A DNA stretch of 24,630 bases from Calditrichaceae bacterium (GTDB taxonomy: Bacteria; Calditrichota; Calditrichia; Calditrichales; JBFXGD01): NCBI GenBank assembly GCA_050178385.1, contig JBFXGD010000038.1, positions 1 through 24,630 of the forward strand, given 5' to 3'. Shown here piece after piece: positions 2,361 to 24,630 of this stretch (its first letter is position 1; every line of letters begins with the position of its first letter). The notes beneath the pieces were generated by a model. The model was not told where the DNA came from. It made no database searches and saw only the letters and a list, made by a program, of their open reading frames with translations. Position numbers and translations under genes: made by a program.

Positions 2361-4295
2361 TCAATTCTTTGTAACGATTGTCCCCTTTTCCGGGAATTTG
2401 AAAGGATTCAGTTTCTGACCGGTTTTGCCATTCGAGTAATGTACCGTCAGCGTATCCGCGGTAATTATGGAAAACAAATCGCTTTCGCTTACTTTTTCAT
2501 TTACAAAATAAACATTCGCGTATGGTTTATCTTTATATACTGTTTCAAACCGTACAATCATGCTATCCGTCGAAATATGGCTCACCAAAGACATAATACT
2601 GCTTCTTAGGGCAGGATTCATGGCCTGAGGCATCGGGATCTCATAAACCGAAATCATATCGGGACTGTAAGTTGTATATTCATTAAAACTGATGTCAAAT
2701 GGTGAAAACATTTCACGCATAAAATCAAGTCTGCTCATTTTTTTTACTTCATCTGAGATATAAGCCACTCCGAATTTCAGACTCTGAGTATATTCTTTTC
2801 CCTTGGTTGTATATGTAACTTCAGGCTTTTCAATGACTGCTTTAATCTGCTGGGGAGTTATTTTACTTTCATCAAAAAATATACTAGCGTGTACAGGTTC
2901 ACCAAATTCTGTCGCAAAACCCATAATACCTTCTGTCTGACGGAGCTGCTGCGTCAAATAAAATGAATCGTATGTATCAAATAGTTTTTCTATCCCAAGA
3001 TCAACCGAGGACAGCATCGCAACTGATGCATCCGGATTACGAAGCAGAGTACGTGTGGGACTGAATACAGATTTTTTTACATCTTCTTCGCTCAGTTTGT
3101 CTTTATCATAAAATATTTTGACAGAATGGGATTGGACATAAGTCTCTACTCCCAGAACCCCATCTACCTTTTTCATTTTTGTGGCAAATGACGAGGAACT
3201 GCCGAAGCACTTGATATTTTTTAAACCTGCCTGAGAAAAAATTGCCGCCTGACTTATTTGATTTTCGCTACCCCACCGTTCATTTATAGTTGGAAGCTCG
3301 ACTGTTGATGCAAGGAAAATTCCCACAGCGATAAGAACAATAGTTGCTGATGCCGGCGCCCAGCGGATTTCCCGTTTATTTATTTGCAGAACTTCTTTTT
3401 CCGGGCAGGAAACGATACAATCGCCGCATAAATGACAATCAATATGATTAACAGTTTCGACACTTGAAATATCAATCGCCATTGGGCAGGCTTTATCGCA
3501 TTTTTTGCAATTTGTGCAGGTATCAACATTGCGGGTAATTTTCAGCGCCGGAAACACCCAACCCTGAAGACGGGTGGTTTCCATCAAATAACCAAGAATC
3601 GAGATAACCGCTAAAGGCCAAACCCAGCTAATCTCGAGATTAAATGCCAACAATATAAAATATACCGCCAACACCGCGACAAACATAATGACATTTGTGA
3701 AAATATTGGTGGCGGCGCCTAGCGGACACAAATATTTGCACCAAAACTGGCGAATAAATATCGCGCCCAAAATCATTATCGCAACAGCGGGAATCGCGTA
3801 CCATAGGAAAACATCATGGCCAAATCCGCTGAAAATGGCATAAAAAGGATCATATTCACGACAAAACAGTTCACTCGCGCTGACCGTAAAATAAAATGTG
3901 GCAAACAGCAGCGCATATTTCAAAACCCTGAGAATTCTGTCTGCCATACCTTTGATAGTATAACGCATTTTCCATTTATCGCCGATTTTACCCAGCCATT
4001 CCGTAAACGTGCCTATGGGACATATATAGCTGCAAAAAAGCTTGCTAAAAATAATCACACCTGCAAGCAAGCCTAGTCCCATGAAGATTTGTGTCTCCGT
4101 CATACTGCAGGCCAGCGTGTTGTTTACTATAAAACTGCTGAATGCCAGCATCCCGCCAAACGGACAGTATGCTTCAAAGTCAGCTATATAATTCTGGTCG
4201 GTAAACAAGCGCACAACCATATATCCCAACAAAACCACAATTGTCCATTGCAGGATAATGCGGTAAGTGTTTAATTGTTTCTTTTTTCTAGCCAT
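2361..4295 (-). CDS. Membrane-bound 2x[4Fe-4S] polyferredoxin (NapH/MauN/YccM/NosR-like) with C-terminal HMA-like domains
   Basis: 644 aa. The N-terminal TM region carries CPFGG, FCSYICPIG and WCKYLCPLG. Ferredoxin motifs are CTNCKKCDKACP and CHLCGDCIVSCP. A further TM is followed by a soluble region beginning with HMA-like GLKNIKCFGS...GVLGVETY...VKIFYD. GGGAG RBS. Confidence 0.85.
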   Translation of the reverse strand: MARKKKQLNTYRIILQWTIVVLLGYMVVRLFTDQNYIADFEAYCPFGGMLAFSSFIVNNTLACSMTETQIFMGLGLLAGVIIFSKLFCSYICPIGTFTEWLGKIGDKWKMRYTIKGMADRILRVLKYALLFATFYFTVSASELFCREYDPFYAIFSGFGHDVFLWYAIPAVAIMILGAIFIRQFWCKYLCPLGAATNIFTNVIMFVAVLAVYFILLAFNLEISWVWPLAVISILGYLMETTRLQGWVFPALKITRNVDTCTNCKKCDKACPMAIDISSVETVNHIDCHLCGDCIVSCPEKEVLQINKREIRWAPASATIVLIAVGIFLASTVELPTINERWGSENQISQAAIFSQAGLKNIKCFGSSSSFATKMKKVDGVLGVETYVQSHSVKIFYDKDKLSEEDVKKSVFSPTRTLLRNPDASVAMLSSVDLGIEKLFDTYDSFYLTQQLRQTEGIMGFATEFGEPVHASIFFDESKITPQQIKAVIEKPEVTYTTKGKEYTQSLKFGVAYISDEVKKMSRLDFMREMFSPFDISFNEYTTYSPDMISVYEIPMPQAMNPALRSSIMSLVSHISTDSMIVRFETVYKDKPYANVYFVNEKVSESDLFSIITADTLTVHYSNGKTGQKLNPFKFPEKGTIVTKN

Positions 4296-4323
4296 AATTC
4301 CAACTCCCTAAATCGATGATTAG

Positions 4324-5559
4324 TTACCTGTCACTCTTTTCGAGTATCAGAATTGCCAGGAATCCATAGATCCCCGTGATAAGCACTACCAGAATGTCGC
4401 CTAGCGAACTACCCATATTTATTTTCCGGCGTCGATAAAGAAAAATCGTCATGAGAATCAGTACAATATTCAGACCAATACTTTTTATGCTGATTGATTC
4501 GATATTAAAATCAAGATACATACTGCTGAAAGTATCCAAATCAAGGGTAAACGGGAAAATATACGCTCCGGCAAGAGCCGCACTTGATTCAGATTTTCCG
4601 GGCCAGGATTCTTCATAAGTATCTATAAGTACATATTCCCTGTTCATGACATAAGTTTTGATATGATCTTCAGAAACTACGGAAACAACCCGGTAGAAAA
4701 GATTGCCTACGACAACAATCTGATCGGTTTCAGGATCATAGCCATCTATGGGTAATTGCTGAGGGCGATAATTATCATATGTTAAAAAATAGAACCTGTT
4801 ATCTTCAGAAACGAGATAGCCATAGAACTCTTTTAATGATTGTTCCTGAAGAAAAAACTGTTTGATCTTCAGATCATCAGGAAAATTCGTATTTTCGCAA
4901 GACGGCTTTCCTTTAATCATTTTTATCTGGAAGAAATCATCATTATTGTCTATCAGAAAATAGCCTTCGTCAAAAGGTTTTCTGGTCGTGGGATTTCCAA
5001 AAATCCGCTTACAGGGAAAAGTGAATCCCTTTTCGGAAAGGGCCTGATTAAATGAATCAGAGATTTCTTCATCAACTTCATTGGTTGTGCAGTTAAGAAC
5101 ATCCATTCGGTTTGTCATCCGGAAGAAAATATCGGGCATCTCCAGTTTTAGTCTTGGCGGCTTTGATTCAAACATAGGGTATACCTGAATCTGGGGCGCG
5201 CTGAATTGATACGGGCGAAATCTCTGCATAAAATTATTTTTTCGGACATCATCCAGTTCAACCTTAATGCCGGCAACAGAATCGGGCATAATACTTTTTG
5301 CGGCAAGAAGACGATAATTCATGAAAGGAAGCAGCGGATCGGTCTCCTCTCGTGTATATTGTTTGTTATCTGAATCATACCAGTTAAATGATTTACCATC
5401 ACTTTTACCGATGATAAACTTTTCAATAACCGGGCTGTAGTTGACCATCGGCGCGCTTGTTCTTTCGCTAAAGATCAGCCAGTAAAGCTGCGGCAGATAT
5501 ATGGAGGCTACAATTACAACAATGACAATAAGCAGCCAGCGACTTAATTTTATTAACAT
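4324..5559 (-). CDS. DUF4857-like membrane protein with a large extracytoplasmic domain (probable ABC transporter partner subunit)
   Basis: 411 aa: one N-terminal TM, a ~310-aa soluble domain (YSPV, LLPF, GNPTTRKPFDEGYF) and two C-terminal TMs. The start overlaps the upstream stop (TAATG), and there is an AGGAG RBS. Confidence 0.75.
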   Translation of the reverse strand: MLIKLSRWLLIVIVVIVASIYLPQLYWLIFSERTSAPMVNYSPVIEKFIIGKSDGKSFNWYDSDNKQYTREETDPLLPFMNYRLLAAKSIMPDSVAGIKVELDDVRKNNFMQRFRPYQFSAPQIQVYPMFESKPPRLKLEMPDIFFRMTNRMDVLNCTTNEVDEEISDSFNQALSEKGFTFPCKRIFGNPTTRKPFDEGYFLIDNNDDFFQIKMIKGKPSCENTNFPDDLKIKQFFLQEQSLKEFYGYLVSEDNRFYFLTYDNYRPQQLPIDGYDPETDQIVVVGNLFYRVVSVVSEDHIKTYVMNREYVLIDTYEESWPGKSESSAALAGAYIFPFTLDLDTFSSMYLDFNIESISIKSIGLNIVLILMTIFLYRRRKINMGSSLGDILVVLITGIYGFLAILILEKSDR

Positions 5560-6236
5560 TATCTAACTCCTTTTCGAAAACGATCAGCTGAATATAAAAT
5601 GGAAATGATATAGAATATGCTGAAGAGAGTAAATAGCGGCAGCGCGTGTTCGTATTGATTGTACCCGCCATTGCTCGGAGAGATAAGCAGTGTGCTTACA
5701 AATCCCGCCGATACTATCATCATAAATATTCTCTGCCACCATCTCGGTTCAACGAAAATCATACCCGTGGCAAGATAGATCACCAGTCCCGCGAGGAACC
5801 ATGCCGCCGTGGTGATCCACAGACTTACGAACACTTCCATTGGATAGAAATTCAGGGTGATTGCGGAGACAATTGTCATAGTAGTGAGATAAATAATCAA
5901 TAACATGGCCACCCCGATCGCCACCATGGTAAGCAAAATCGTATTTGTTTTCATTGGCAGATGCAGAGTGAGTTTTAATCTGCTGGCGTTTATTTCCGGA
6001 TAGAATTGAACAATACCCAGAATAAACCCCGAAATCAGCGGAATTGCCAATATGGATGAATAGAATATCTGATGGCGGAAAATCACATAATACCAGCTGT
6101 TTTTGGGTGTCATCATTCTCATATCATAAGCAATATTTAATGCAATCATAACCAGAATCAGAACCGAGAAAATTAAAATCGCCAGAAAAGCCCAGCGAAT
6201 TTTTAACCATTCTTTAAATATTAATGCTCTAATCAT
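5559..6236 (-). CDS. ABC-2-like transporter permease subunit (about 6 TM)
   Basis: 225 aa, hydrophobic, with an N-terminal 'ALIFKEWLKIRW' and an internal 'QFYPEINASRLKLTLHLP' coupling-helix-like motif. It follows the ABC ATPase. Confidence 0.75.
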   Translation of the reverse strand: MIRALIFKEWLKIRWAFLAILIFSVLILVMIALNIAYDMRMMTPKNSWYYVIFRHQIFYSSILAIPLISGFILGIVQFYPEINASRLKLTLHLPMKTNTILLTMVAIGVAMLLIIYLTTMTIVSAITLNFYPMEVFVSLWITTAAWFLAGLVIYLATGMIFVEPRWWQRIFMMIVSAGFVSTLLISPSNGGYNQYEHALPLFTLFSIFYIISILYSADRFRKGVR

Positions 6237-6244
6237 TTGAACTC

Positions 6245-7135
6245 CTAGTATTTTCCCGTTAACCCGATAAAGGCATCTTCCAAAGTCATAGTAACTTCAG
6301 TAAAATTATCATATTGGATTCCGCTTTTTTTCAGATAATTTTTGATGTCATCTTCGACACTGTAAGTATAAATTGTGCAATGATCTTTTATAATTTCGAA
6401 GTTTTTGATTACTTCATCTTTAACCAGTTGTACTGAATTTGGTGAATTCAGGGTGATTCTGTATTTTTTGAAACCATCCCTGAATTCTTTTACACCCGAT
6501 GAAAGTAGCACACCGCGATAATCCAGAATGACACAATCATCAATAAAATCTTCCAGGTCCTGAATAATATGAGATGTGATAAAAATCGTTTTATTTTCCG
6601 CTTTGGCATATTCGTTCAGATAATCCAGAAATAACCGCCGATAGCCCGCATCCAGCCCCATGGAATAATCATCAAGAATCATCAGATCCGGATTCTGCGC
6701 CAGAATCAGACCCAGCGCTACCTGTGAACGTTGCCCGCAGGACATTGTTGACAACTTCTGATCCGGTTCAACTTCAAGTTTGGACATCAATTCATAATAG
6801 GCTTCTTTTTTCCACTCAGGGAAAAAGTGCGAATAGAATTTCTCGATCTGATAAATATTCATAAAATTGTGCTGAATATGCCCCTCCATTAAAAACCCGA
6901 TTCTTGCTTTTGTCCGGGGCGGGAGTTTCTGAGAGTCTTCGCCAAAAATGAGACATTGCCCGGCGGCCGGTTTCAGATAACCATTAAGAATATTAATAGT
7001 GGTGGTTTTGCCGGTGCCGTTCTTACCGAGCAGACCGAAAATACTGCCCTTTTTGATATTAAAACTCATGTTCTCATATATGAGTTTTTTCCCGTAATAA
7101 TGCGTCAAATTTTTGCATTCGACCACGTATTCCAT
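6245..7135 (-). CDS. ABC transporter ATP-binding protein (exporter/ABC-2 class)
   Basis: 296 aa: Walker A GKNGTGKT, signature variant MSCGQ, Walker B/D-loop LMILDDYSMGLD, H-loop TSH, C-terminal TLEDAF. Confidence 0.93.
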   Translation of the reverse strand: MEYVVECKNLTHYYGKKLIYENMSFNIKKGSIFGLLGKNGTGKTTTINILNGYLKPAAGQCLIFGEDSQKLPPRTKARIGFLMEGHIQHNFMNIYQIEKFYSHFFPEWKKEAYYELMSKLEVEPDQKLSTMSCGQRSQVALGLILAQNPDLMILDDYSMGLDAGYRRLFLDYLNEYAKAENKTIFITSHIIQDLEDFIDDCVILDYRGVLLSSGVKEFRDGFKKYRITLNSPNSVQLVKDEVIKNFEIIKDHCTIYTYSVEDDIKNYLKKSGIQYDNFTEVTMTLEDAFIGLTGKY

Positions 7136-7177
7136 AACTTTGTTCCTTTGTTATTTCTCAAATATTGCCGGAAACAT

Positions 7178-9979
7178 TTAATTCAGTTTTAGATCCAGTT
7201 TCAAGTTTTCCGAAGCGACTTCAAACTGTCGTAAAAATTCATCATCTTCAATCGGACCAGCCACAACAATGACACTTTTATCAGGATGAAAATACTCCTT
7301 CGAAATTCGTAAAATATCTTCTTTTGTTATTGCATTTATGATATCAAAATAATTATCCAGTTCACCCGGAGCCTTATTGTACCTGATTTGTTGGAATATT
7401 TCTTTCTGCAGATCCTGAGGCGTTTCGATGATCATAGGCATAATGCTTAAAAGATATTTTTTAACATCGGTAAGTTCCTCATCCGATATTGGTTCATCCT
7501 GCATTCTTTTCATTTCCAGTAAAGCGGAAGCCACAAGCTGACCACCGTTTTCAGGAGCCGTTTTTGATTCAATAAACCAGGCCCCTCCATGCTTTCTGGA
7601 TTTGATTCTGCTGTTTACCCCGTATGCAAGACCCTGTTTATCACGTATATTTTTACCCAGACGGCTCGTTAGCGAACTGCCACCGAGGATATGATTTGCC
7701 AGATCGCAAATTTCATAGTCAGCAGCTCCTTTTTCCAAAGTCCCATGTCCTATTCGTATGGTTAACTGTGTATTTTCAGGTTTATTGATGACTATAAGTT
7801 TTGTCTGTCCTATTGGTTTTTGATGAGGATAATCTTCAATCACCGCTCCTTGTTTTGCAAAATACCCGAATTTTCTGTTTAATAGCTCCCACATTTGTTC
7901 ATTTTTAAAATCACCGACAACTACGATAAATGTGCTATCCATGTGGACATATTTCTGGTAATACTCTAGAACATCATCACGGGTTATATTTCCGATAGCT
8001 TCCGCGTTCATGGATGCAAATCTGCTGTATGGATGCCCGTCATAAATCTGTTTGTATAGTTCTTTACTGGCAATCCATCCGGCCTGTTTTTCCACCTGAA
8101 GCAGTTTATTTGTAGTAAGTTTTTTGATTAATTCGAGCTGGTCGGCAGGGAAACTTGGTTCAAACAACTTTTCCTTCATGATATCCAGCGCTTCTTCAAA
8201 TTTGTCGGTCAAGCCGTTCGCTGAGAAGATAATTGATTCGTCCCCGCCGCCGACCATGGCACTCGCCGCCAGGAAATGCAGACGGTCCTGTATTTCCTGA
8301 TATGTTTTTGTTTTTGTCCCGCGGTTCATAACCGACAAAGTTATAGATCCCAGATCCGGCTTGACATCATTAAGCGTGGTGTTACCGATGTATGTTTCAC
8401 CCATAAGACTTATATAAGGAGCGAGATGATCTTCCATTAGAAATACTCTAATACCATTATCAAGCCGCCCTTCTTTGATCCTTTTGCCAACTGGATTAGG
8501 ACGAATAATATCATCGATTGCAAATGAATCATCTTCTCTTTCCGATGTTACCGAAACATCACTATCCCCGTTCTCATCATTCCCATTCTCATCTTCATCA
8601 TCATCACCATATTCATCCGATTCCAGCCGCGATGATTTTTCAGGTTTAGTCGTGGCAGCAATAGTGATCACGTTTGAATCAGGTATGATCACCCCTATCG
8701 TTGCTGTATTTAGATCGAAATACTTTTGAAAAGTATCTCTGATTTTTTCCTGAGTCATGTTTTTAATTTCATCCATGTAGCGGTCATATTCCCGGTAATC
8801 TCCAGCATAAAACTCATAATTGCCAATGCGGTTGGCTACTTCTGACACTTTGAGTTTATTCAGGAATTCACTGGCGCGATAACGGTTTTTTTCCTTTTCA
8901 AGTTCATACTCGCTTACCAGCTCATTTTTTAACCTGTCGATTTCTTCCATGAAAATTTTCAAATTTTCATCTTTGTCAGAACCGGGTAAAACATCAAATT
9001 TTAACGTAATCGGTTTTGCTTCCAGGCCACCGCTTAAACCTATCCTGATATAACTTGCCTTTCTGGACAAAACCAATCTCTTGTATAACCGGTCGTTCGA
9101 ACTGCTTAAAAGAATACTGCGTCCCAGAGTGAGCGCCGCCCTGTCAGGATGTGTTAAATCTATCCCCGGTAGATAAACCAATACACCGGGGTTTTTAACC
9201 TCGGACCGACGCAAAGAAACTTCCTTCTCCGCGATGACCTGCGGTTCTTCAATGCTCAGTTTAGGGATCTCAGGTCCTTTTGGTATATCATTATAGTAAT
9301 ATTTGACTTTTTTTATCATTTCTTCTGTTTCAAAATCACCCACAAGAACCAGAATCGCATTATTTGGAGTATAGTAGGTTTGATAATATTGAAACGCCTG
9401 TTCTCTGGTTAAATTATCCAGATCGTTCATCCAGCCGATAACAGGCCAGCGGTAGGGATGACTTTTAAAGAAGGCAGCGTTCATTTCTTCACCGAGCAAT
9501 GCATCCGCGTTATCCTGCGTACGCATGCGCCGTTCTTCTTTAATAACTTCCAACTCACTGAGGAATTCGTCCGGATCAAAGATGCTGTTCATCATTCGAT
9601 CAGATTCTATTTCCAAAGCGATATCAATCCTGTTTTTAGGCATCTGCTCAAAGTACATAGTCATATCGGTTGATGTGAACGCGTTAAAAACGCCTCCGTT
9701 ACGTTTTATAACTTTTGCCACTTCTCCCTTTTGGAATTTACCGGTTCCTTTGAACATCATATGCTCGCAAACATGCGAAATACCGGTAATGCCCACATTC
9801 TCATTACGTGATCCGACCCGGTAATATAAATTGCTGATGATAATCGGCGTGGTATGCATCTCATACAGATATACCTGCAAGCCGTTATCTAAAGTAAATT
9901 CCTTTACATCCAATGGCTCCGAAGCGAAAAGCGAACCGGCCAGAAAAGTAATCAGAAGGATAAAATTATATTTTCTCAT
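7178..9979 (-). CDS. M16-family (pitrilysin/PqqL/FusC-like) zinc metallopeptidase with fused halves, exported
   Basis: 933 aa with a Sec signal peptide (…GSLFA-). It has the inverted zinc motif HVCEH (9761-9775), NAFTS and EVIKEER. The second half starts LDNGIRV, lacks HxxEH and carries the R/Y pair IRDKQGLAYG. Confidence 0.93.
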   Translation of the reverse strand: MRKYNFILLITFLAGSLFASEPLDVKEFTLDNGLQVYLYEMHTTPIIISNLYYRVGSRNENVGITGISHVCEHMMFKGTGKFQKGEVAKVIKRNGGVFNAFTSTDMTMYFEQMPKNRIDIALEIESDRMMNSIFDPDEFLSELEVIKEERRMRTQDNADALLGEEMNAAFFKSHPYRWPVIGWMNDLDNLTREQAFQYYQTYYTPNNAILVLVGDFETEEMIKKVKYYYNDIPKGPEIPKLSIEEPQVIAEKEVSLRRSEVKNPGVLVYLPGIDLTHPDRAALTLGRSILLSSSNDRLYKRLVLSRKASYIRIGLSGGLEAKPITLKFDVLPGSDKDENLKIFMEEIDRLKNELVSEYELEKEKNRYRASEFLNKLKVSEVANRIGNYEFYAGDYREYDRYMDEIKNMTQEKIRDTFQKYFDLNTATIGVIIPDSNVITIAATTKPEKSSRLESDEYGDDDEDENGNDENGDSDVSVTSEREDDSFAIDDIIRPNPVGKRIKEGRLDNGIRVFLMEDHLAPYISLMGETYIGNTTLNDVKPDLGSITLSVMNRGTKTKTYQEIQDRLHFLAASAMVGGGDESIIFSANGLTDKFEEALDIMKEKLFEPSFPADQLELIKKLTTNKLLQVEKQAGWIASKELYKQIYDGHPYSRFASMNAEAIGNITRDDVLEYYQKYVHMDSTFIVVVGDFKNEQMWELLNRKFGYFAKQGAVIEDYPHQKPIGQTKLIVINKPENTQLTIRIGHGTLEKGAADYEICDLANHILGGSSLTSRLGKNIRDKQGLAYGVNSRIKSRKHGGAWFIESKTAPENGGQLVASALLEMKRMQDEPISDEELTDVKKYLLSIMPMIIETPQDLQKEIFQQIRYNKAPGELDNYFDIINAITKEDILRISKEYFHPDKSVIVVAGPIEDDEFLRQFEVASENLKLDLKLN

Positions 9980-10031
9980 CTTTAACTAATTTCCCAATTT
10001 ATGACTTGAATGATATTGTAAATTTAGTTCT

Positions 10032-12263: not shown

Positions 12264-12311
12264 TCTAAACTCCACTTCTGATAACGGTTGCATAATGAAA
12301 TTTTTGATTAT

Positions 12312-12346
12312 AAAAGTGGCGTCTCCGAGTTGACGACGCCACTTTT
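12312..12346. terminator. Intra-operon stem-loop (bidirectional terminator-like or mRNA-stabilising hairpin)
   Basis: Perfect 12-bp inverted repeat AAAAGTGGCGTC / GACGCCACTTTT with an 11-nt loop, ~35 nt downstream of the stop at 12382. Confidence 0.72.
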
Positions 12347-12381
12347 GAATCATTGCAGATTAAAAAATTACCGTCATTTTG

Positions 12382-14574: not shown

Positions 14575-14607
14575 GCATTACCTCCTGTGAATTGTGACAC
14601 GATTTGT

Positions 14608-14628
14608 GAAGCAAGATTCTCCTGCTTC
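14608..14628. promoter_or_regulatory. Short stem-loop in the 5' leader of the propeller gene
   Basis: Minus strand GAAGCAGGA-GAA-TCTTGCTTC (9-bp stem with one G-U). The T-run (14630-14635) follows it only on the plus strand. Confidence 0.45.
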
Positions 14629-14683
14629 GTTTTTTGTATCTGCTGCATCAAATACCGTTCTTCATTCCGTTCATTCTGTATTC

Positions 14684-16207: not shown

Positions 16208-16215
16208 CAAATCTC

Positions 16216-17379: not shown

Positions 17380-17388
17380 ATTTTTTAC

Positions 17389-20145
17389 CTAATATCTTTT
17401 TATATAATCAATAAAATCATCCACTACCGCACTCAACTCTACCCCGTAAAAAATCTCGGGATTTCTTCGTATATAGGATAGGGAACCGCTAGGAACTCTG
17501 TCACGCTTGTATAAAGGCTGAGAATTAAACAGGTTATTTACAAAAAACGATAATTCAGAACCCGGCCATAATTCTTTACTCACCCTCAAATTTACCAGCC
17601 AAAGATTCGGCTTACTTTCCGTGATAAAATAATAATCAGCATAGGTGCGTCGGATCGATTCATATTCCGGATTACCCATATCCTCCTCAGGAATCATGTA
17701 GATCGTACCGTCGCTCTTAACAAACCCCGCGGCAAGTGAATCTTCCAGACCGATATATTTATCTTTCTCCACCGCTACTTGCTCCACTGCAAGCGTAAAC
17801 CATAATTTGAGAGGTTTCACAACGGTATCGAACCGGTAATGTATGATTAATTCTTCTGCCTGCTTGCTTACGGGCTTCCAAAATGGAATTATTTTCTCTC
17901 CCAGGTTTTGGTCAAATCTCTGAGTTGTTGAATAATCATAATAATTATCCTGCCACCAGCTGTTTGTTGAATGAAAAGCGGCATCGATTCGCATGGTTGT
18001 GTTGATATATGGTATTTTTTTACTGGTCACTGCCAGTTCCAGGCCCCGTGTGATCGATTCAACGGAGTTGATCGGCGTTCTGTAATCCAAAATGAGAGTA
18101 TCCCTTGCAACCGCCTCATCCGTGTCAGGCCAGTTTGGATACGAATATTTTTCAAACATGATCGGATTGTACCCGGAGAGTTCAAATCCGTCGTGCATAC
18201 GCTCATAGAATCCGGTTAAGGACAGACCGAAAAAACCAATTCTCTGATCAACGCTCATTTCATATTTGCTGTGCGTAAATGCTTTTAAATTTTCATTTGT
18301 GCGATCCTGAATATATGTGCTGACCACCGCGAGGCGATTCTGCTCATTGGTCGGGTCGAAATACATGGAATCAACTATATCAAAGTAGACAGGATTTGGA
18401 TACAACATACTGATGGGGGGCGCTTTGGCCGTTTTACCATAGCCCAGACGGAATTGGGTGTTTCCAGTAAGATAATAAACAAAATTGATCCTGGGATTCA
18501 GATACGATCCATGATCCGATTTTACGACTTCACCGGAGCCATCCAGATTGATCCCGTTCAATCCGAAAATATCATAACGTAACCCAAACTGGAGAGAAAA
18601 ATCCTTAAACAGATGTCCGGTTATCTCATCCTCGCCATAGAGGGCAATCTGAGTCAAACCGGGGACATCGTCATAGCTTCGCGGCCGGTCACCTTCATTA
18701 TCCGTCAGTCCCGGAGGATAAAGAGGATCAAATTCTCTGCCGGGGCCGTTGTTGAATTCATACCTTACCGTAAATCCGGCCTGCCACTGATGGAGTGTAT
18801 TTAGCAGAAAGTTTTGATTTTCATATTCCAGCTGACCGTAGGTATTCCATTCCCGGCCATTAACATTAAGTCTGGTTGTGTAGGAGCTTACAAAATACCC
18901 TTCTTCCGTTCCGGGTTCCATTCTGGTGCCGATAACACCGATATCCCTGCTGATAATGCTTTTGTAGTACGAATCCTGCCGATTCATACTTCCCGAGAAA
19001 ATCGCTTTCAAGTTCTTCTTTTTTGACCAGTTGTATTGCAGTTTGGACAAATAGCGCGTGGAATAGCTGCGGTTGTAGCGTTCTGTCTGATTTATATCAC
19101 CGTCACGCAGTTCCTGTTCATCAAAAGAACGTGTATAGTATAGACGATTCGTCCAGGCCAGTTTTTCGTCATAGAAGGTGGATTCAAAATTCAACTGTCC
19201 CGCCAATCTGCTGTAGGCATCACCATCAACCCTTATATCTCTCAGGCTTTTTGCATAATTGACATTAAAATTCATCGCGTGATTATTTCTGGCTAACCCC
19301 CCGCTCAGATTTAGTTCTTTGTTTCTCGGATTTGACTTGTATTTCGCGCGGTAAGGGGTGTAGCCGCTTTTGGTCTTTACCAGAACGGCGCCTGATGTAA
19401 GATCACCGTATCTTGCGGGCGGTATTCCGCGAAGAACTTCAATTGAACTGATATTCTCGGCTGGAATCTGACGCAGATCGATTCCAGCGTTTGTAGTAAT
19501 TCTGTAGGTGGCGCCGTCATTTAATCGGGTATCGAGCTGCATATTGGCGTTGTTGGAAATGGGGACTTCGTCCATCAAAATCTGCGTGCCTAAAGACGCA
19601 TTCCTGTCCGCTTCATCGACCGTGCTGATCTGTCTTAGTTCAAGCTGCTTAACATTTTCCAGACCCGGATTCGAAAACCTTTGACCCGGAATCAGTTCCA
19701 TCACATCGCCAAGGCTTGAAGCCTGAATATGTTCAATTTCTCCTGAAGAGATCTGTGTGGTGGTTGCCACCTTGTCGGGAAGAAGTTCTCTCTCGGCTGT
19801 CACCTCTATTCCGCCGATATAAAAATTTTCCCCTTCTTTTGCGGTTCTTTCGAGAAATATCTGGTCAGTCCATTTTTTACCGGGTTCTATGGTGACATTT
19901 AGCAAAACGGTGCGGCCATATCCGGTTGAAAGAAAAGAAATGCTGTAGGTACCGGGCGGAACACTATCGAAACGGTACAATCCAATTGAGTCGGTTTTGG
20001 AAGTGATATCCAATTCGGTAATTTTAACCAGGACTCCGGGAATACCCAATCCGGTTTGTACATTCAGTACAAGCCCCTCTATCCGCCCTGTGTTTTGGGC
20101 AAATGAAAATGTGATTAAAAACAGACTTAGTATAATTCCCTTCAA
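17389..20145 (-). CDS. TonB-dependent receptor with an N-terminal carboxypeptidase-regulatory-like extension (copy 2)
   Basis: 918 aa, TTG start, signal peptide. N-terminal domain GRIEGLV…PGTYSISF; TonB-box-like IEVTA; plug GIDLRQIPAENISSIEVLRGIPPARYGDLTSGAVLVKTK; barrel end FVNNLFN…PEIFYGVEL. Confidence 0.93.
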   Translation of the reverse strand: MKGIILSLFLITFSFAQNTGRIEGLVLNVQTGLGIPGVLVKITELDITSKTDSIGLYRFDSVPPGTYSISFLSTGYGRTVLLNVTIEPGKKWTDQIFLERTAKEGENFYIGGIEVTAERELLPDKVATTTQISSGEIEHIQASSLGDVMELIPGQRFSNPGLENVKQLELRQISTVDEADRNASLGTQILMDEVPISNNANMQLDTRLNDGATYRITTNAGIDLRQIPAENISSIEVLRGIPPARYGDLTSGAVLVKTKSGYTPYRAKYKSNPRNKELNLSGGLARNNHAMNFNVNYAKSLRDIRVDGDAYSRLAGQLNFESTFYDEKLAWTNRLYYTRSFDEQELRDGDINQTERYNRSYSTRYLSKLQYNWSKKKNLKAIFSGSMNRQDSYYKSIISRDIGVIGTRMEPGTEEGYFVSSYTTRLNVNGREWNTYGQLEYENQNFLLNTLHQWQAGFTVRYEFNNGPGREFDPLYPPGLTDNEGDRPRSYDDVPGLTQIALYGEDEITGHLFKDFSLQFGLRYDIFGLNGINLDGSGEVVKSDHGSYLNPRINFVYYLTGNTQFRLGYGKTAKAPPISMLYPNPVYFDIVDSMYFDPTNEQNRLAVVSTYIQDRTNENLKAFTHSKYEMSVDQRIGFFGLSLTGFYERMHDGFELSGYNPIMFEKYSYPNWPDTDEAVARDTLILDYRTPINSVESITRGLELAVTSKKIPYINTTMRIDAAFHSTNSWWQDNYYDYSTTQRFDQNLGEKIIPFWKPVSKQAEELIIHYRFDTVVKPLKLWFTLAVEQVAVEKDKYIGLEDSLAAGFVKSDGTIYMIPEEDMGNPEYESIRRTYADYYFITESKPNLWLVNLRVSKELWPGSELSFFVNNLFNSQPLYKRDRVPSGSLSYIRRNPEIFYGVELSAVVDDFIDYIKRY

Positions 20146-20183
20146 AATTTATCCCGCCCTGTACATGTTAATACACTTTTATA

Positions 20184-21653
20184 TCAAAAATATTGTTTTA
20201 GCTGAACAATTAAATCCATCGACTGCCGCTTGTTACCGGTGTTTACCCCGGAAACAGTACCTTTGAGATCGCTGTAGCGGCCGTAAACTTCCAATTCATA
20301 ATTTTTTAATAACCAGTCTACCCCACCTGTGTATTTAGATCCGCTGAAATCACCATAGTAATTCCATATCTTATCTTCGTTATAGCCTTTGTAGATATAT
20401 CCCGCCTGAAGTTTCCATGAATTCCCGACCCGATACTCAATCCCCGTATGTATTTCCAGATTAGCGATGTCCCCCTGTCTGTAAAGATGCGCCAGATAGT
20501 CTTTTTTATCAGGGGCGCTGGACTGATAATGAATTTCAACAGCCCCTTCCAGTGGAATATCAGAGAATCGGTGGGAAACACCGAGGACACTTCGATGCTG
20601 CCTGTTAAATGAGCGGTAAAACAATAAATCGGCGGCTGCTTCCTTTGCCCAGTCTTCGGTATATTCAAATTCATAGCTAAACGCGAGTGATGTCTGATTC
20701 AGCCGTCCTAAATGTTTCCGAAACGCCATATTCACTGAATATTTCTGGGCCTGATAATATCCGTCATACAAACGTTTTGTTGGATTATCGTATAATTCAT
20801 GCCATTGGTAGTTGTACTCGGCATAAAAAACGCCTTCAAATTTTTCTCCCTTGATGGCCAGCTGAGGTCTTATCTCATACCCCTTATAAATGGCGGTGCG
20901 GTCCTGCGTGCCCGTACTCTTGCGAAACTCGAATTCTCCCCTGTATCTGAACGTCTGCGGATACTGGCCGTCAGATTGGGTCACCAGTTTCGTAATATCC
21001 TGATAATGGTAAGGCAGCACGGAAATTCCGAGAACAATGTTTTCTGAAAATGAATGTACTAGATCAACACTCGCGGTTATTTGGCGGCTTATAATCTCCG
21101 TTTCCGTATAAATATCTTTTAAACCCCGATTAATATTGTAGTTAAAGGATGTACCCCAATACCAGCCTGATGACAATTTATGACTGAATATTACCGTTAC
21201 CTCGGGTCCGAGATATTCAAAATCACCCGAGGTTGAATCCGCCAGGACAAACGGATCGCCGGTATATGGATTTTTCTCGATAGCTCTGTTGACATCCTCA
21301 CGATAATCATAGTTATATTTGATTTCACCAAAAAAGGCCTGATTATCGCCAATGTGCTTAAACCCGCTGAATGAAAGGTAATGAAGATGATTCTCCCTGG
21401 CGTCCCAGTACCTTTTCAGGTCCCCCCAGTCATTATTTGTGAATGTAGTGTACTTCATCCAGTTTAGAGAATCATTGTTTATCAGCCATGCGGAATTTCC
21501 CGCCGCCTGAAACAGATTAATCTGATTGTCCGTATCCGGAACCGAGAGGGATATCCCCCCCATCGCCAATAAGCGATTACTGCCTGCAGTTGAGCTGGAT
21601 ATTCCCCAGCAAAGGAATATGATCTGAATGATTATGAAAAATTTTCTGCTCAT
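20184..21653 (-). CDS. DUF6850-like outer-membrane beta-barrel protein (copy 1)
   Basis: 489 aa with a signal peptide. It has an N-terminal RLLAMGG (FadL/PorV-like start), GNSAWL, DPFVLADSTSGDF, and C-terminal beta-signal IVQLKQYF. The start overlaps the upstream stop (ATGA). Confidence 0.78.
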   Translation of the reverse strand: MSRKFFIIIQIIFLCWGISSSTAGSNRLLAMGGISLSVPDTDNQINLFQAAGNSAWLINNDSLNWMKYTTFTNNDWGDLKRYWDARENHLHYLSFSGFKHIGDNQAFFGEIKYNYDYREDVNRAIEKNPYTGDPFVLADSTSGDFEYLGPEVTVIFSHKLSSGWYWGTSFNYNINRGLKDIYTETEIISRQITASVDLVHSFSENIVLGISVLPYHYQDITKLVTQSDGQYPQTFRYRGEFEFRKSTGTQDRTAIYKGYEIRPQLAIKGEKFEGVFYAEYNYQWHELYDNPTKRLYDGYYQAQKYSVNMAFRKHLGRLNQTSLAFSYEFEYTEDWAKEAAADLLFYRSFNRQHRSVLGVSHRFSDIPLEGAVEIHYQSSAPDKKDYLAHLYRQGDIANLEIHTGIEYRVGNSWKLQAGYIYKGYNEDKIWNYYGDFSGSKYTGGVDWLLKNYELEVYGRYSDLKGTVSGVNTGNKRQSMDLIVQLKQYF

Positions 21654-22786
21654 TCGTGTTGATACCCCGGTGTTGGTGTATTATTGAGAACAAAATCAAG
21701 TGTACTGTTGTTTGTATCAAATCCCGGCAATCTTCGTTCAGTTGATTTTCCACTGTATTTTAATGTTCCGATTCCGGCGAATCCCGCGTCAAGACGGGTT
21801 GTCACTTCTTTGGTTGATTCATCGCTGGAACTGTATTCCACCGCATCAATAACAGTGGAGATGGGGATGTGAATGTACTGTTTGTCACTATTTTCATAGC
21901 TGTCCCCATAATACCAGTCCGATCCGTCCGTGAGAATTACGGCATTGTGGCTTACATTAATCATAAAATCGGAGGTTCTGTCAGGCAGAATGTTATTGAT
22001 GTTTGGGGCGGGATTATTGATATCCGCGCCATACGGATCAAAAAACTCCCAATCCGCGCCGCTTAAATCCACGGCATTTGTGATATATTTTGAATGATCG
22101 AGCGCATCCTGAGCCAGAACGACAAACTGCCCCGGAATAACCGGATATTCTCTCCCTGTCAATGGTTCCCCCGGGAACTGAAACAGGTAGACGCCCTGGA
22201 CGAAATCGATAGTCTCCATCTCCGGGTGCTCTGCCTGACGCGCGCGGCAAACAATCATCCCGTCAAGATAAACCGTATCCTGAGAAGTATTGTACAACTC
22301 CACATACTGATCATAAAAATAGAAAGCGTTATTTACAGGCCCACAGTAGTAGATCTCATTAATAACCAGTTTGGAAGCGACAGAAAGTATGGTCTTAAGC
22401 GTATCCGGGGTTGAATTTGATGCATATAATTCCACCAATTTATTTCCGCGCAGCATGATACCTGTGTTATTCAGGAAATATTCTTTTTCAACAGACATTG
22501 TATATTTTGAAGCGGCAAGTCCGTCAAATACGGCCAGGCCGCTGCTGTCCGAATAAGCGGTATATTTTTTGGCGGCTGATGTTGTCTCATAATAACTTCC
22601 GGAGATCAATGTGATTTCGGCGTTGGGAACCGGCGCGTAACCAAGCGATGAATTATAAGGCACAATATCTGACTGATCCACAACAATGGTTTTTAAAACC
22701 AGATGACCGTCCTTCTCCGTCGGCATTTGTTCTGTACAGCAAATGCATAGCAACAACACGGATAAAATGGCAAAATAATTTTTCAT
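21650..22786 (-). CDS. DUF4876-like outer-membrane lipoprotein (copy 1)
   Basis: The probable start is the ATG at 22786 (MKNYFAILSVLLLCIC-C lipoprotein signal), not 22999. Motifs LVINEIYYCG, FYDQYVELYN, FPGEP…YPVIPG, AQDALDH, DTNNSTLDF and PTPG. Confidence 0.82.
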   Translation of the reverse strand: MKNYFAILSVLLLCICCTEQMPTEKDGHLVLKTIVVDQSDIVPYNSSLGYAPVPNAEITLISGSYYETTSAAKKYTAYSDSSGLAVFDGLAASKYTMSVEKEYFLNNTGIMLRGNKLVELYASNSTPDTLKTILSVASKLVINEIYYCGPVNNAFYFYDQYVELYNTSQDTVYLDGMIVCRARQAEHPEMETIDFVQGVYLFQFPGEPLTGREYPVIPGQFVVLAQDALDHSKYITNAVDLSGADWEFFDPYGADINNPAPNINNILPDRTSDFMINVSHNAVILTDGSDWYYGDSYENSDKQYIHIPISTVIDAVEYSSSDESTKEVTTRLDAGFAGIGTLKYSGKSTERRLPGFDTNNSTLDFVLNNTPTPGYQHE

Positions 22787-22811
22787 TCTTATTAACCCTG
22801 TCATATGAATA

Positions 22812-24630
22812 TTAAAACAGATCATCAAGCTTTGTGCTGAATGCGATCCCCCAGAATATTTCCGGATTTCTCGTCTGGTAATATCCCTGGCGATCCTTGT
22901 AATATCCCTTATCATCAAATATATTCTCCACGAAGAGCGAAATTTCCGCGCCTTTGTATAGGGACTTGCTTGCCACGATACTAAAAATCCATTTATCATT
23001 CGGTCTGCTGTCCGTACTTATATCCAGCGGATCGTAAGTTCTGTCAAGCCCCATCATCTCTGAAGTTGCCGCGTCAATTTCATGCAGGTCACCGTTGGAA
23101 TAATATCCCTGGGCAGCGGACACCGGATCATCTTTTCTTAAATTTTTGTCCCACAATACCTGTTGAGCTTTAAAGGTAAGCCAGATTCCAAGAGGCTTGG
23201 CGATGTAGTCAATATTATAATTGATCACCATTTTCTGCCGCCAGGATGTATAGGGTTTATAATATGGAATAAACTGCATGTCTTCCGGCACAACCCACCC
23301 GGAACTAAGCGTGTCACCACCGGTTAAATAACGCACACTTCCGAATTGTGTATAATCTTTGCTGCCGTATTTTGCGAAATTAAAAGCGGCATTCACATGA
23401 AAACGCATATTGAGCGACTTAATACGGTGCGTTCTCAAACTGAATTCGATGCCGGATGACTCTGTCCAGCCAAGATTATAAGCAAGTTCATATTTTGAAT
23501 CGGTAGTTGTAATGGTCTCATTGACTATTTTACCATCCGGATCAGGCCAGTTGGGCCATTCATAGCGGTAATAGGTAAAAGGTACATAGACGTTTCTCGG
23601 TATGTCCGTTGTCTTTTCGCTATATGTCACAAGGCTCAATCCCACATCTCCAATCTGCTGGTCTACACCCAATTCAAACTTCGTATTTTGATACCCTTTA
23701 AGATTCAGATTACTTTTATCATACAGATAGGTGGAAATCAATGTAATGGTGGTATCTTGCCCGCTTGGATGGGTGGTGGTAGTAAAATCCTGGACATCGA
23801 GATAATAATTTTCAGGATAAATTGAAGACAAGGATGGAATCTTTGAAGATTTACTAAAAGTAAATCGCATCTGGGTTCTTTTGGCCAGTTTGATTTTTAA
23901 GCCCATCCGGGGATTAAAAAAACTTCCCTGATCGGCTTTAAAAATGTCTTTATTCTTAAACAGATTGGAAAAATTGATGCCGGTGGGATTGTAGCTGTCA
24001 ATTCTCAGACCAAAATTTAATGTGTATGGTAATATAAAATCACCGGTGATTCTGTCGTCTGCAAACAAAGCGAACTGTGATGTACCCGGAGTATCGCTAA
24101 AGGAACGCGGGCGCGTTGTCAGAAACCCGTTAGGCGGTTTTAACAGATCAAAGGTTTTTCCCTGACCGGTATTATCATCCGTTTGAAACTCGGCGCCAAT
24201 TAAAAAGCGATGAAGAATTTCACCCGTAAAAAATTTCCTGTTCAATTTTATTTTTGACCCATAACTCCATTCATTTCCTCGTGTAAGAACTTCCGAAAAA
24301 TACGAGGCTTCTTCCGGTATTATACCCTCCTGCGTTCCCGGTGTCTCCCGGTCTGTCCAAACAACCACATCGGGAGTCTCTAATTTACGTTTCCAGCTGT
24401 TCCGACGCTTGAAATCAACATAATTACGGATATACAGATGCGTGACATCATTCCAATCATAGTTAAACTGGTTCGAATAGGTTATGTGATGATCTCTGTT
24501 ATAGGCACGGGTGGCATAGGGATCACTCTCATCATTATCTTCTTCTATTTTCCGGGAATATTTCAAAGAGTGCGCCAGATTTAATTTCCCGTTCAGGAAA
24601 TCGTTATTTGAATTAAGAGAACCGGTGATG
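22812..24630 (-). CDS. TonB-dependent receptor (copy 1), 5' part outside the window
   Basis: The frame stays open from 24566 to the window edge (…ITGSLNSNNDFLNGKLNLAHSLKYSRK). Barrel motifs are shared with 17389-20145: RPRSFSDTPG, NFGLRID, NPR, WPNWPD, FVENIFD, RNPEIFWG. Confidence 0.9.
   Translation of the reverse strand, partial: ITGSLNSNNDFLNGKLNLAHSLKYSRKIEEDNDESDPYATRAYNRDHHITYSNQFNYDWNDVTHLYIRNYVDFKRRNSWKRKLETPDVVVWTDRETPGTQEGIIPEEASYFSEVLTRGNEWSYGSKIKLNRKFFTGEILHRFLIGAEFQTDDNTGQGKTFDLLKPPNGFLTTRPRSFSDTPGTSQFALFADDRITGDFILPYTLNFGLRIDSYNPTGINFSNLFKNKDIFKADQGSFFNPRMGLKIKLAKRTQMRFTFSKSSKIPSLSSIYPENYYLDVQDFTTTTHPSGQDTTITLISTYLYDKSNLNLKGYQNTKFELGVDQQIGDVGLSLVTYSEKTTDIPRNVYVPFTYYRYEWPNWPDPDGKIVNETITTTDSKYELAYNLGWTESSGIEFSLRTHRIKSLNMRFHVNAAFNFAKYGSKDYTQFGSVRYLTGGDTLSSGWVVPEDMQFIPYYKPYTSWRQKMVINYNIDYIAKPLGIWLTFKAQQVLWDKNLRKDDPVSAAQGYYSNGDLHEIDAATSEMMGLDRTYDPLDISTDSRPNDKWIFSIVASKSLYKGAEISLFVENIFDDKGYYKDRQGYYQTRNPEIFWGIAFSTKLDDLF

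Follow-up and report, generated by a model that had tools for sequence, protein, structure and literature searches.

A two-module TonB-dependent gene block in a Calditrichaceae bacterium, best explained as a nutrient-capture system

We analysed contig JBFXGD010000038.1 of a Calditrichaceae bacterium (assembly GCA_050178385.1), a stretch of 24,630 bp that makes up the whole contig and is referred to here as the window. It comes from a genome bin of 3.89 Mb, which is 94% complete. Fifteen long open reading frames (ORFs) were found, all on the minus strand, and thirteen of them form a block from 2361 to 24630. The best explanation for this block is a modular TonB-dependent nutrient-capture system of bacteria from the Fibrobacterota–Chlorobiota–Bacteroidota (FCB) group, with two paralogous outer-membrane units. 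Underlying this are its gene content, the folds and predicted topology of its proteins, its conserved synteny and its two-module structure. With respect to function, we consider it an even call that the system captures, imports, proteolyses and reductively processes a peptide- or protein-bound metal, probably iron.

In the order of transcription, the block encoded a TonB-dependent transporter (TBDT, receptor 1), a DUF4876 lipoprotein and a DUF6850 barrel, then a second receptor with its own DUF4876 lipoprotein and DUF6850 barrel, a BNR propeller protein, a HEAT-repeat protein, an M16 peptidase, an ABC ATPase, a permease with six transmembrane (TM) segments, a DUF4857 protein and a membrane polyferredoxin. 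The intergenic gaps were, in the same order, 25, −4, 38, 9, 5, 109, 118, 52, 42, 8, −1 and 28 bp. The contig end cuts the 5′ end of the receptor 1 gene, and the promoter of the block lies beyond the contig.

A sequence-only reading of this DNA had described 13 co-oriented, tightly packed genes covering every envelope compartment. Both points were borne out: all genes are on the minus strand with gaps of 118 bp or less, and the domain inventory was correct by Pfam and NCBIfam profile scans of the window ORFs and by fold models. The scans also agreed with its statement that SusD, glycoside hydrolase and periplasmic solute-binding families are absent from the 13 genes. A SusCD-type polysaccharide utilization locus was rejected, because neither SusD nor a glycoside hydrolase was present. 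In place of the one complete trans-envelope system of that reading, we recognize two paralogous, separable and nested modules rather than a single line of 13 steps.

Two paralogous modules and their distribution

The core module is widespread, as a relative of the HEAT protein was encoded in at least 576 of 671 candidate stretches retrieved by an alignment search of contigs from species-representative genomes (one genome per species). For the locus counts, the best 80 HEAT-centred loci were kept with 10-kb flanks, and their ORFs were called and clustered. The taxa named for these loci included Ignavibacteria, Neomarinimicrobiota, KSB1, Calditrichota, Balneolales and others. A full triad of receptor, DUF4876 lipoprotein and DUF6850 barrel lay upstream of the HEAT gene, on the same strand, in 44 of the 48 loci whose upstream flank spanned 7 kb or more, and this arrangement is therefore far beyond chance. 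A BNR gene was found in 35 of the 48. Downstream, a second receptor was present in 9 of the 46 loci with at least 5 kb of flank on that side. The polyferredoxin was located somewhere in 10 of the 33 loci having both flanks, often just upstream of the receptor.

The 10-kb flanks under-count accessory genes, the ABC/DUF4857, M16 and polyferredoxin genes of genomes G086 and G087 being just outside. In G087 (loci L128 and L017), the order was receptor, DUF4876, ABC ATPase, permease, DUF4857, DUF6850, BNR, M16, polyferredoxin, BNR, receptor, DUF4876, DUF6850, BNR and HEAT. In G086 (L129 and L025), it was receptor, DUF4876, DUF6850, BNR, ABC ATPase, permease, DUF4857, polyferredoxin, BNR, receptor, DUF4876, DUF6850, BNR, HEAT and M16. 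Both genomes have all the families of the window, arranged differently.

DUF4857 was detected in 24 of 86 Calditrichota genomes, and stretches from 14 of these 24 were inspected for gene neighbourhoods. The cultured Calditrichota species Caldithrix abyssi encodes a DUF4857 protein (Calab_3519). The ABC unit came directly after BNR or HEAT in 12 of the 14 genomes. The polyferredoxin followed DUF4857 directly in 10, was elsewhere in the locus in two and was not seen in two; M16 was found in none of the 14 stretches examined. The co-occurrence of protease, ABC and iron-sulphur (Fe-S) genes with the triads in other genomes, on which the earlier linking of these genes depended, was found in Calditrichota, and again for the whole set in G086 and G087.

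The two modules were recognized by paralogue typing, in which each lipoprotein–barrel pair was scored against copies 1 and 2 of the window. Fifty-three pairs were followed by HEAT, with an optional BNR in between: 50 were typed 2/2, three were typed 2/1 and none 1/1. The eight pairs typed 1/1 were followed by polyferredoxin (two), M16 (one) or the contig end (five). Stand-alone type-1 modules, with a triad, BNR, ABC-permease-DUF4857 and polyferredoxin and without HEAT nearby, were present in L108, L110, L113, L114 and L134, the last one also with M16. Type 1 is composed of receptor, lipoprotein (called here the lid), barrel, BNR, sometimes M16, the ABC unit and polyferredoxin. Type 2 is composed of sometimes BNR, receptor, lid, barrel, sometimes BNR, the HEAT protein (which has a gingipain fold, see below) and sometimes M16.

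Modules of both types were neighbours in L014, L019, L021, L027, L029, L060, G002, G086 and G087. In the window and in G002 (L115 and L125), whose gene order is that of the window, the type-1 triad and the inner-membrane genes of type 1 enclose the type-2 module between them. Exceptions to the split were found in L117 and L118, where ABC-permease-DUF4857 came after HEAT behind a type-2 triad, with polyferredoxin after DUF4857 in L118 but upstream of HEAT in L117. In some Ignavibacteria loci a pair of an extracytoplasmic function (ECF) sigma factor and FecR preceded the type-1 receptor.

Proteins of the envelope

Receptor 1 (22812–24630, minus strand, as are all genes below) is a 5′-truncated type-1 TBDT, a frame of 605 aa running off the contig. 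It had no Pfam match and was recognized as a paralogue of receptor 2, with 31% identity over 621 residues (E 5e-90); it shared a BLAST cluster with 70 receptor ORFs of related loci. Receptor 2 (17389–20145, type 2) had Plug (2.6e-12) and barrel (1.4e-15) domains, preceded by an N-terminal CarboxypepD_reg domain (1.7e-10). No solved chain, FusA and YddB included, matched it by sequence at E ≤ 0.01.

On the same strand as its receptor, a DUF4876 gene followed after 25 bp in the type-1 triad and after 9 bp in the type-2 triad. The type-1 lipoprotein (21650–22786) matched PF16215 (6.2e-23) and had a lamin-tail domain (LTD, 2e-7). Its start is likely the methionine of MKNYF at 22786, followed by a hydrophobic stretch and a cysteine. 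The longest ORF of this gene (21650–22999) starts further upstream, at 22999, and shares 188 bp with the end of receptor 1; with a lipoprotein-type N-terminus at the internal ATG, automatic gene calls may over-extend this gene. The type-2 lipoprotein (16216–17379; PF16215, 3.9e-31) matched the solved structure 4q1z, a ‘putative lipoprotein’ (2.2e-21), and its lipobox cysteine, Cys24, was invariant in 36 of 36 aligned sequences.

As a rule, the DUF6850 gene comes right behind that of DUF4876; in the window, the two genes overlapped by 4 bp in the type-1 triad and were 5 bp apart in the type-2 triad. The two DUF6850 outer-membrane barrels (copy 1 at 20184–21653, PF21012 7.2e-16; copy 2 at 14684–16210, PF21012 3.4e-29) were 23% identical, and copy 1 had an N-terminal signal-like segment. 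The AlphaFold2 (AF2) model of copy 2 was a plug-less barrel of ~20 long strands (pLDDT 89.5). Its fold matches were generic, with CymA (Z 18.4), a Bdellovibrio OmpA-like protein (Z 17.9), FhaC, porins and TBDT barrels. No specific barrel family, such as Slam or FadL, stood out for DUF6850 by Foldseek and a wide fold search, and there was no sequence match to a solved structure. A role as a Slam-like translocon would be a guess.

Complex prediction of mature DUF6850 with DUF4876 gave a score of 0.50 (runs 0.72, 0.00 and 0.50), the best of three controls reaching 0.02. The mark for this score was reached by 116 of 157 solved complexes and by 2 of 215 mismatched pairs; scores past the mark but not above 0.60 were seen for only 18 of those 157 complexes and for both mismatches that passed. 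The runs agreed in at least 0% of the contacts, with a partner pLDDT of at least 80. These models weakly suggest that the barrel may contact the lipoprotein.

The propeller protein (12382–14574) had BNR/Ycf48-like repeats (PSII_BNR 2.4e-37, in six stretches) and a Sortilin-Vps10 match (1.6e-15). Its C-terminus matched the sorting domains of the type IX secretion system (T9SS), with 39.6 bits for TIGR04183 (cut-off 23) and 30 for Por_Secre_tail (cut-off 27). By eye, the same type of C-terminal domain (CTD) ended 62 of 63 BNR homologues in related loci. The genome encoded a PorU-like sortase (818 bits, cut-off 420) and had ~40 further CTD matches. With both the sorting domain and a genomic T9SS sortase present, the BNR protein is a predicted T9SS cargo of type A. 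In L108, a complete one-contig genome, the BNR proteins were larger, with 873 aa (7850–10471) and 1116 aa (16197–19547). The 873-aa protein carried lamin-tail and T9SS domains, which makes the lamin-tail a domain common to propeller and DUF4876 lipoproteins.

The HEAT protein (10032–12263) is exported and combines HEAT repeats (HEAT_2 4.2e-18) with a gingipain-fold N-terminal domain (clan CD, C25-like). Its family counted 2024 proteins at E ≤ 0.001 among 8000 scored candidates; the 120 relatives listed, apart from the window’s own entry, had 677–756 aa and 45–56% identity. Residues 1–465 had no Pfam match, C25 included, at E ≤ 10, and among solved chains this domain had only a chance-level sequence match. 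The fold was recognized in the AF2 model made from 56 sequences (pLDDT 88.8). Its residues 32–461 matched RgpB (1cvr) with Z 29.4 and a root-mean-square deviation of 3.0 over 297 residues (Foldseek E 1.5e-6), and gingipain K (6i9a) gave Z 28.3. The next unrelated matches were to HEAT repeats, with Z below 12. In the 56 sequences, H280, H282, G283, D381, C383, N385 and G386 were invariant. In the model, H282-G283 comes directly after the β-strand 276–280 and C383 directly after the strand 377–380. Clan CD peptidases carry their His-Gly and Cys right after β-strands. The protein had a Sec-type N-terminus, read from the sequence, and no T9SS domain, and is therefore probably periplasmic rather than at the surface.

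The M16 metallopeptidase (7178–9979) is an exported protein of two units (Peptidase_M16 7.5e-32; M16_C 2.4e-57 in two stretches), with HVCEH at residue 69, a signal-like N-terminus and four domains. Its best solved relatives were active and inactive M16B subunits (4nnz, 3.3e-64; 3amj_B, 2e-27 on residues 505–908), and it looks like a fusion of the two. Chains of the PqqL and FusC type matched at ~2e-18, on residues 20–255 only. By this comparison it is closer to fused M16B subunits than to FusC/PqqL. M16 was downstream of HEAT in only 5 of the 46 loci with at least 5 kb of downstream flank.

At the inner membrane, the ABC ATPase (6245–7135; ABC_tran 1.9e-22) was of the DrrA/PmtA/GldA (ABC-2) kind, with matches to the exporters PmtA (5.5e-39), DrrA (4.2e-35) and GldA (4.2e-32) versus 6.2e-19 to the importer FecE. 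The permease (5559–6236) was recognized by six hydrophobic segments, having no Pfam or NCBIfam match. The DUF4857 protein (4324–5559; PF16149 6.5e-89) had TM segments at 2–20, 356–374 and 388–406, with an extracytoplasmic domain of ~270 aa in between. No solved relative was found for it by sequence, and the ESM Atlas returned only the DUF family itself. In two genomes, permease and DUF4857 were one polypeptide (L138, 666 aa; L142, 555 aa), indicating that the two proteins work as one membrane unit.

The NapH/NosR-like polyferredoxin (2361–4295, 644 aa) matched Fer4_5 (2.2e-11), NapH/MauN (1.9e-11) and NosR (1.2e-10). It had CX3CP motifs at 88 and 186 and CX2CX2CX3CP motifs at 260 and 287, all of whose cysteines were invariant. 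Seven TM segments were predicted, with K+R counts of 5/0/5/1/1/0/10 in successive loops. By this charge pattern, the N-terminus and the Fe-S domain are predicted to be cytoplasmic and the 311-residue tail after TM7 to be outside. The family was conserved over its full length (46–93% identity among the 120 proteins listed), with C363, G365, S366, F439, D440 and G465–V468 invariant. For the tail no named family was found, the ESM Atlas giving only its own unnamed family. The ‘metal-binding-fold domains’ that the earlier reading saw in this protein stand in part: HMA-type matches were present but weak (MerTP 1.1e-6, HMA_2 0.071), and a CxxC was missing. A true CcoG or NapH was rejected, as the scores were far under the curated cut-offs (44 bits versus 213 for TIGR02163; 40.4 versus 1000 for NF046105, NosR) and partner genes were missing. 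In the B. thetaiotaomicron locus BT3625-33, PepSY-TM proteins hold the slot of the polyferredoxin. PepSY-TM proteins include periplasmic ferric-siderophore reductases, e.g., FoxB. By analogy, the two kinds of protein may be alternative periplasmic reductases for the same job.

Link to metal and competing explanations

We infer the cargo, the order of the steps, the direction of the ABC unit, the role of the reductase and the barrel–lipoprotein contact as follows. The T9SS-secreted double BNR propeller and the surface DUF4876 lipoprotein would bind the cargo outside the cell. The lipoprotein would act as a surface ‘lid’, with which the DUF6850 barrel would probably be complexed, and the TBDTs would import the cargo, assisted by the barrel as lid partner or channel. 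The type-2 unit would pass its cargo to the periplasmic gingipain-fold cysteine peptidase on its HEAT scaffold. The type-1 unit would work with the periplasmic M16, the ABC-2-type unit (ATPase, six-TM permease and DUF4857) and the polyferredoxin. Both peptidases, the gingipain-fold/HEAT protein for type 2 and M16 for type 1, would cut peptide cargo in the periplasm. The polyferredoxin would carry electrons from cytoplasmic Fe-S clusters or quinol to its periplasmic domain, reducing the released metal or chelate, and the product would be moved by the ABC-2/DUF4857 unit, whether across the inner membrane, into it or out of it. The cargo would be a redox-active metal bound to peptide or protein, with iron as first choice, freed by proteolysis and reduction. 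From the literature on homologues, the block may be induced by iron or heme starvation.

External support for a metal link, which the sequence-only reading had also proposed, came from iron- or heme-limitation experiments on related loci. Relatives in B. thetaiotaomicron and P. gingivalis were among the genes most strongly induced by iron or heme starvation. BT3625-33, which encodes DUF4857, a hypothetical protein, an ABC ATPase, two PepSY-TM proteins, a fimbrillin-family protein, two DUF4876 proteins and a TBDT, was 37- to 128-fold up in brain heart infusion (BHI) with 150 µM dipyridyl (PMC10434189). BT1933-39, with a HEAT-repeat protein, DUF4876 and a TBDT, was 3.5- to 7.4-fold up with dipyridyl, and PG1019-22 of P. 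gingivalis (DUF4876, TBDT and hypotheticals) was 20.8- to 214.5-fold up (PMC10434189). PG1019/1020 were also up in a heme-starved hemH mutant, in a 2026 paper that speaks of an uncharacterized transport system (PMC13096392), and down in CdhR mutants (PMC11018363).

Further support came from one gene context (L138, below) and from the ECF sigma/FecR pairs ahead of type-1 receptors in some loci. Among 14 control genomes, B. thetaiotaomicron was the sole match for PF16149 and PF16215. DUF4857 was found in 8 of 151 sampled Bacteroidota genomes, and the four most divergent contexts were annotated with Pfam. In L138 (830–11475), one strand encoded FeoB, a TBDT (two ORFs), an ABC ATPase and the permease–DUF4857 fusion; the opposite strand encoded a DUF3793 protein and a repressor of the DtxR type that carries a FeoA domain. 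In L140 (1–9396) and L142 (2–7672), a TBDT, a small c-type cytochrome and a protein without Pfam match (698 or 873 aa) were followed by the ABC unit. The L131 context had ThiF and a thioesterase. The L140 locus was interrupted by transposases of the insertion sequence (IS) type.

Several results weigh against the favoured reading of metal capture. The ABC ATPase is of the exporter kind, no binding-protein family was found in the block and DUF4857 had no invariant Cys or His in 27 sequences; given these three findings, import across the inner membrane by the ABC unit stays conjectural. The HMA-like part of the polyferredoxin is without CxxC and has a single invariant cysteine, C363. Dipyridyl binds metals besides iron. 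The HEAT protein of BT1933-39 was likened to that of the window only by its description as a HEAT-repeat protein. Mutants of two DUF4876 pairs in B. thetaiotaomicron had no clear phenotype in 519 fitness experiments (10.1101/2023.03.17.533168). Downstream of HEAT, M16, ABC+DUF4857 and polyferredoxin were each present in only 5 of 46 loci. Among the 121 genomes of a class-level sample around G087, 4 encoded DUF4857 and 9 the HEAT protein, G087 being the only one with both; given this rare joint occurrence, the 13 genes are not one obligatory unit.

The search for a Fur box, which the sequence-only reading had called for upstream of the first receptor, was run on the 300 bp upstream of six Calditrichota type-1 receptors. 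It also counts against metal capture: no E. coli-type box stood out, the best match to the E. coli 19-mer having five mismatches, at one locus, a level reached by 5% of shuffles. No 9- or 10-mer was common to at least four of the six regions. In L111 and L113 (two of the six), an inverted repeat, GAATA-N(1–3)-TATTC, lay no more than 100 bp ahead of the start of the type-1 receptor; the region is AT-rich and the repeat by itself not significant.

A bolder version of metal capture, which we think unlikely, is protein piracy in FCB bacteria beyond the Fus system. The propeller would take a whole metalloprotein, the three-part outer-membrane machine would import it and the two peptidases would dismantle it; the iron set free, or that of Fe-S or heme, would then be reduced by the polyferredoxin in the periplasm, and ABC-2/DUF4857 would move the product. 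If this were true, the HEAT arm would hold the gingipain-fold peptidase under the receptor, and DUF6850 would represent either a novel kind of accessory channel in the outer membrane or a partner of the lipoprotein. About as improbable is that peptides or small proteins are taken up merely to supply carbon and nitrogen, with another purpose for the ABC unit and polyferredoxin. Such nutrition would agree with the two exported peptidases, which differ in class, with the Sortilin/Vps10-type repeats of the T9SS propeller and with the ~20 Å side opening in the modelled TBDT–DUF4876 pair (10.1101/2023.03.17.533168), but not with the tight linkage of polyferredoxin to DUF4857 (directly after it in 10 of 14 Calditrichota genomes) or the PepSY-TM proteins in the same slot of the B. 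thetaiotaomicron locus. Nor would it agree with the induction of homologous loci by iron or heme starvation, or with the FeoB and DtxR genes adjoining the L138 unit.

Decidedly unlikely, in our judgement, is a system for copper or another non-iron metal destined for cuproenzymes, in which the receptor would resemble OprC/NosA, the polyferredoxin would reduce Cu(II), the ABC-2 unit would resemble NosFY and DUF4857 would take the part of NosD. The polyferredoxin does belong to the NapH/NosR/CcoG superfamily (NosR 1.2e-10; CcoG 0.0014 on the Fe-S part). CcoG is a cupric reductase, and NosDFY offers a parallel for ABC-2/DUF4857. A CcoI-like P-type ATPase and cbb3 CcoNO are encoded behind the HEAT gene of L052 and L054, and 454 bp downstream of the block are ArsR/SmtB and an ArsP_1 protein with a sub-threshold Cu/Zn efflux match. 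However, CxxC was absent from the conserved columns and no stretch rich in Met or His was noted there, the window is without a cuproenzyme gene and the cbb3 neighbourhood occurred in only 2 of 80 loci. The published inductions were obtained with an iron chelator, and iron is also what the FeoB/DtxR neighbours point to.

Envelope building or export, with ABC unit, barrel and T9SS cargo placing or maturing a surface structure and the peptidases acting as maturases, we regard as very improbable. It would draw on the closeness of the ABC ATPase to the exporters PmtA, DrrA, GldA and NodI and on the radical SAM/SPASM gene directly upstream of the first receptor in G002. The GldAFG layout resembles an ATPase, a six-TM permease and a membrane-anchored periplasmic protein, and the T9SS sortase PorU shares the gingipain fold. 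Against this, two plug-bearing TBDTs with lid-type lipoproteins are import machinery, the type-2 module is usually without an ABC unit, and induction by iron starvation fits uptake. That unrelated same-strand operons are juxtaposed by chance is barely credible, even with the modules occurring separately in many genomes, ECF/FecR pairs between the modules in some Ignavibacteria loci and gaps of 109 and 118 bp around BNR. The modules are repeatedly neighbours, in varied orders, in the nine loci and genomes listed above; in the window type 2 is nested inside the type-1 set, and the components are paralogous.

Known systems and neighbouring genes

Of the known systems compared, the window has the defining features of DUF4876-lidded non-SusC TBDTs (BT1939/BT1938, BT3633/BT3632), namely a TBDT (Plug and barrel domains in copy 2) with an adjacent DUF4876 lipoprotein on the same strand. 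As in the BT3625-33 operon, DUF4857, an ABC ATPase and a hypothetical membrane protein are encoded together with a TBDT–DUF4876 pair, and like BT1933-39 the window has a HEAT-repeat protein beside such a pair. It differs from the Bacteroides loci in having two triads, DUF6850 after each lipoprotein, a T9SS propeller and M16, and from BT3625-33 also in the NapH-like polyferredoxin where that locus has PepSY-TM proteins. DUF4876 was predicted on the outer face of the receptor, leaving an opening of ~20 Å, and receptor–DUF4876 pairs were close together in 81 and 59 genera (10.1101/2023.03.17.533168). For the Bacteroides lidded systems, lid complexes were predicted, proximity was conserved and transcripts were measured (10.1101/2023.03.17.533168, PMC10434189). 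No functional study on DUF4876, DUF6850, DUF4857 or the BT and PG loci was found in the papers searched.

With the protease-associated import clusters reported in Proteobacteria (FusABCD; YddB/PqqL/YddA; PMC6793856), the window has in common only the logic: one cluster with a large TBDT, a periplasmic M16 (~920–930 aa) and an ABC component, and a link to iron. By sequence, receptor 2 matched none of the solved TBDT chains at E ≤ 0.01, the M16 was nearer to M16B subunits than to PqqL/FusC and the ABC unit was of another type. The main protease partner in the window has a gingipain fold, and lipoprotein, second barrel and T9SS propeller are extra. No TonB-family (FusB-like) match was found among the 15 window ORFs, the upstream end being cut by the contig.

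The HEAT protein shares with the gingipains RgpB and Kgp the two-subdomain catalytic fold (Z 29.4 and 28.3), and its conserved His-Gly and Cys after β-strands may correspond to their catalytic residues. In contrast to them, it had no Pfam C25 match, ~100 residues including a helical insert between His and Cys, a Sec signal only, no T9SS CTD and a fusion to ~280 residues of HEAT repeats. The polyferredoxin has the Fer4_5 membrane domain, two CX3CP and two [4Fe-4S] motifs in common with NapH/NosR/CcoG, but seven predicted TM segments, a family-specific periplasmic tail of 311 aa and no Nap, Nos or cbb3 partner in the window. Compared with ABC importers that use a solute-binding protein, the block has no binding-protein family and its ATPase is nearest to PmtA, DrrA and GldA.

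DUF4876-lidded receptor pairs, as predictions, and the iron-stimulon loci of Bacteroidota are already known. New here are both modules nested in one block, the paralogue split, the strong gingipain-fold match and the tailed polyferredoxin as a recurrent partner. The locus adds three unstudied parts to the predicted receptor–lid pair, namely a second barrel without a plug, a gingipain-fold/HEAT protein that is probably periplasmic and a polyferredoxin whose tail is predicted to face the periplasm. The two-module split tells which genes belong together for deletion, and what iron-regulated TonB systems import is a question testable in a tractable host. This should interest those who study iron and TonB transport in Bacteroidota and related bacteria.

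After the polyferredoxin there is a gap of 454 bp, followed on the minus strand by an unrelated pair, an ArsR/SmtB metalloregulator (1562–1906) and an ArsP_1-family permease (209–1510) with a sub-cut-off match to the SO_0444 Cu/Zn efflux family. This is probably a separate metal-efflux unit. It was left out of the system, given the gap and given that a phosphodiesterase and NusG stand instead beside the polyferredoxin of L108. An Rfam scan of the window gave nothing at gathering scores. A search for sequencing runs that contain this stretch gave DNA runs only, one of them a possible source, and no RNA run. Promoter-like sites were at shuffle level (42 versus 41.5). Terminator-like sites numbered 20 versus 12.4 in shuffles; all were within coding sequence or outside the 13-gene block and are therefore uninformative on transcription units.

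Further observations concern the flanks of related loci. In G002, 53 bp separate the radical SAM/SPASM gene (L125, 5433–6533, minus strand; SAM, S-adenosylmethionine) from the type-1 receptor gene downstream of it, which has the same orientation. Genes for an LPG_synthase_TM protein and a GT2 glycosyltransferase precede the radical SAM/SPASM gene, and another gene of this kind lies on the opposite strand; the counterpart of this region in the window falls beyond the contig end. In the Ignavibacteriaceae loci L052 (12307–17052) and L054, HEAT is followed by the CcoI-like P-type ATPase (ATPase-cat_bd) and a fused cbb3 CcoN-CcoO, a possible hint of a copper link. In the KSB1 loci L012 and L028, an Amidase_3 N-acetylmuramoyl-L-alanine amidase ORF came directly after the receptor that follows HEAT; in L028 it lies (6556–7185) between that receptor and the DUF4876 gene.

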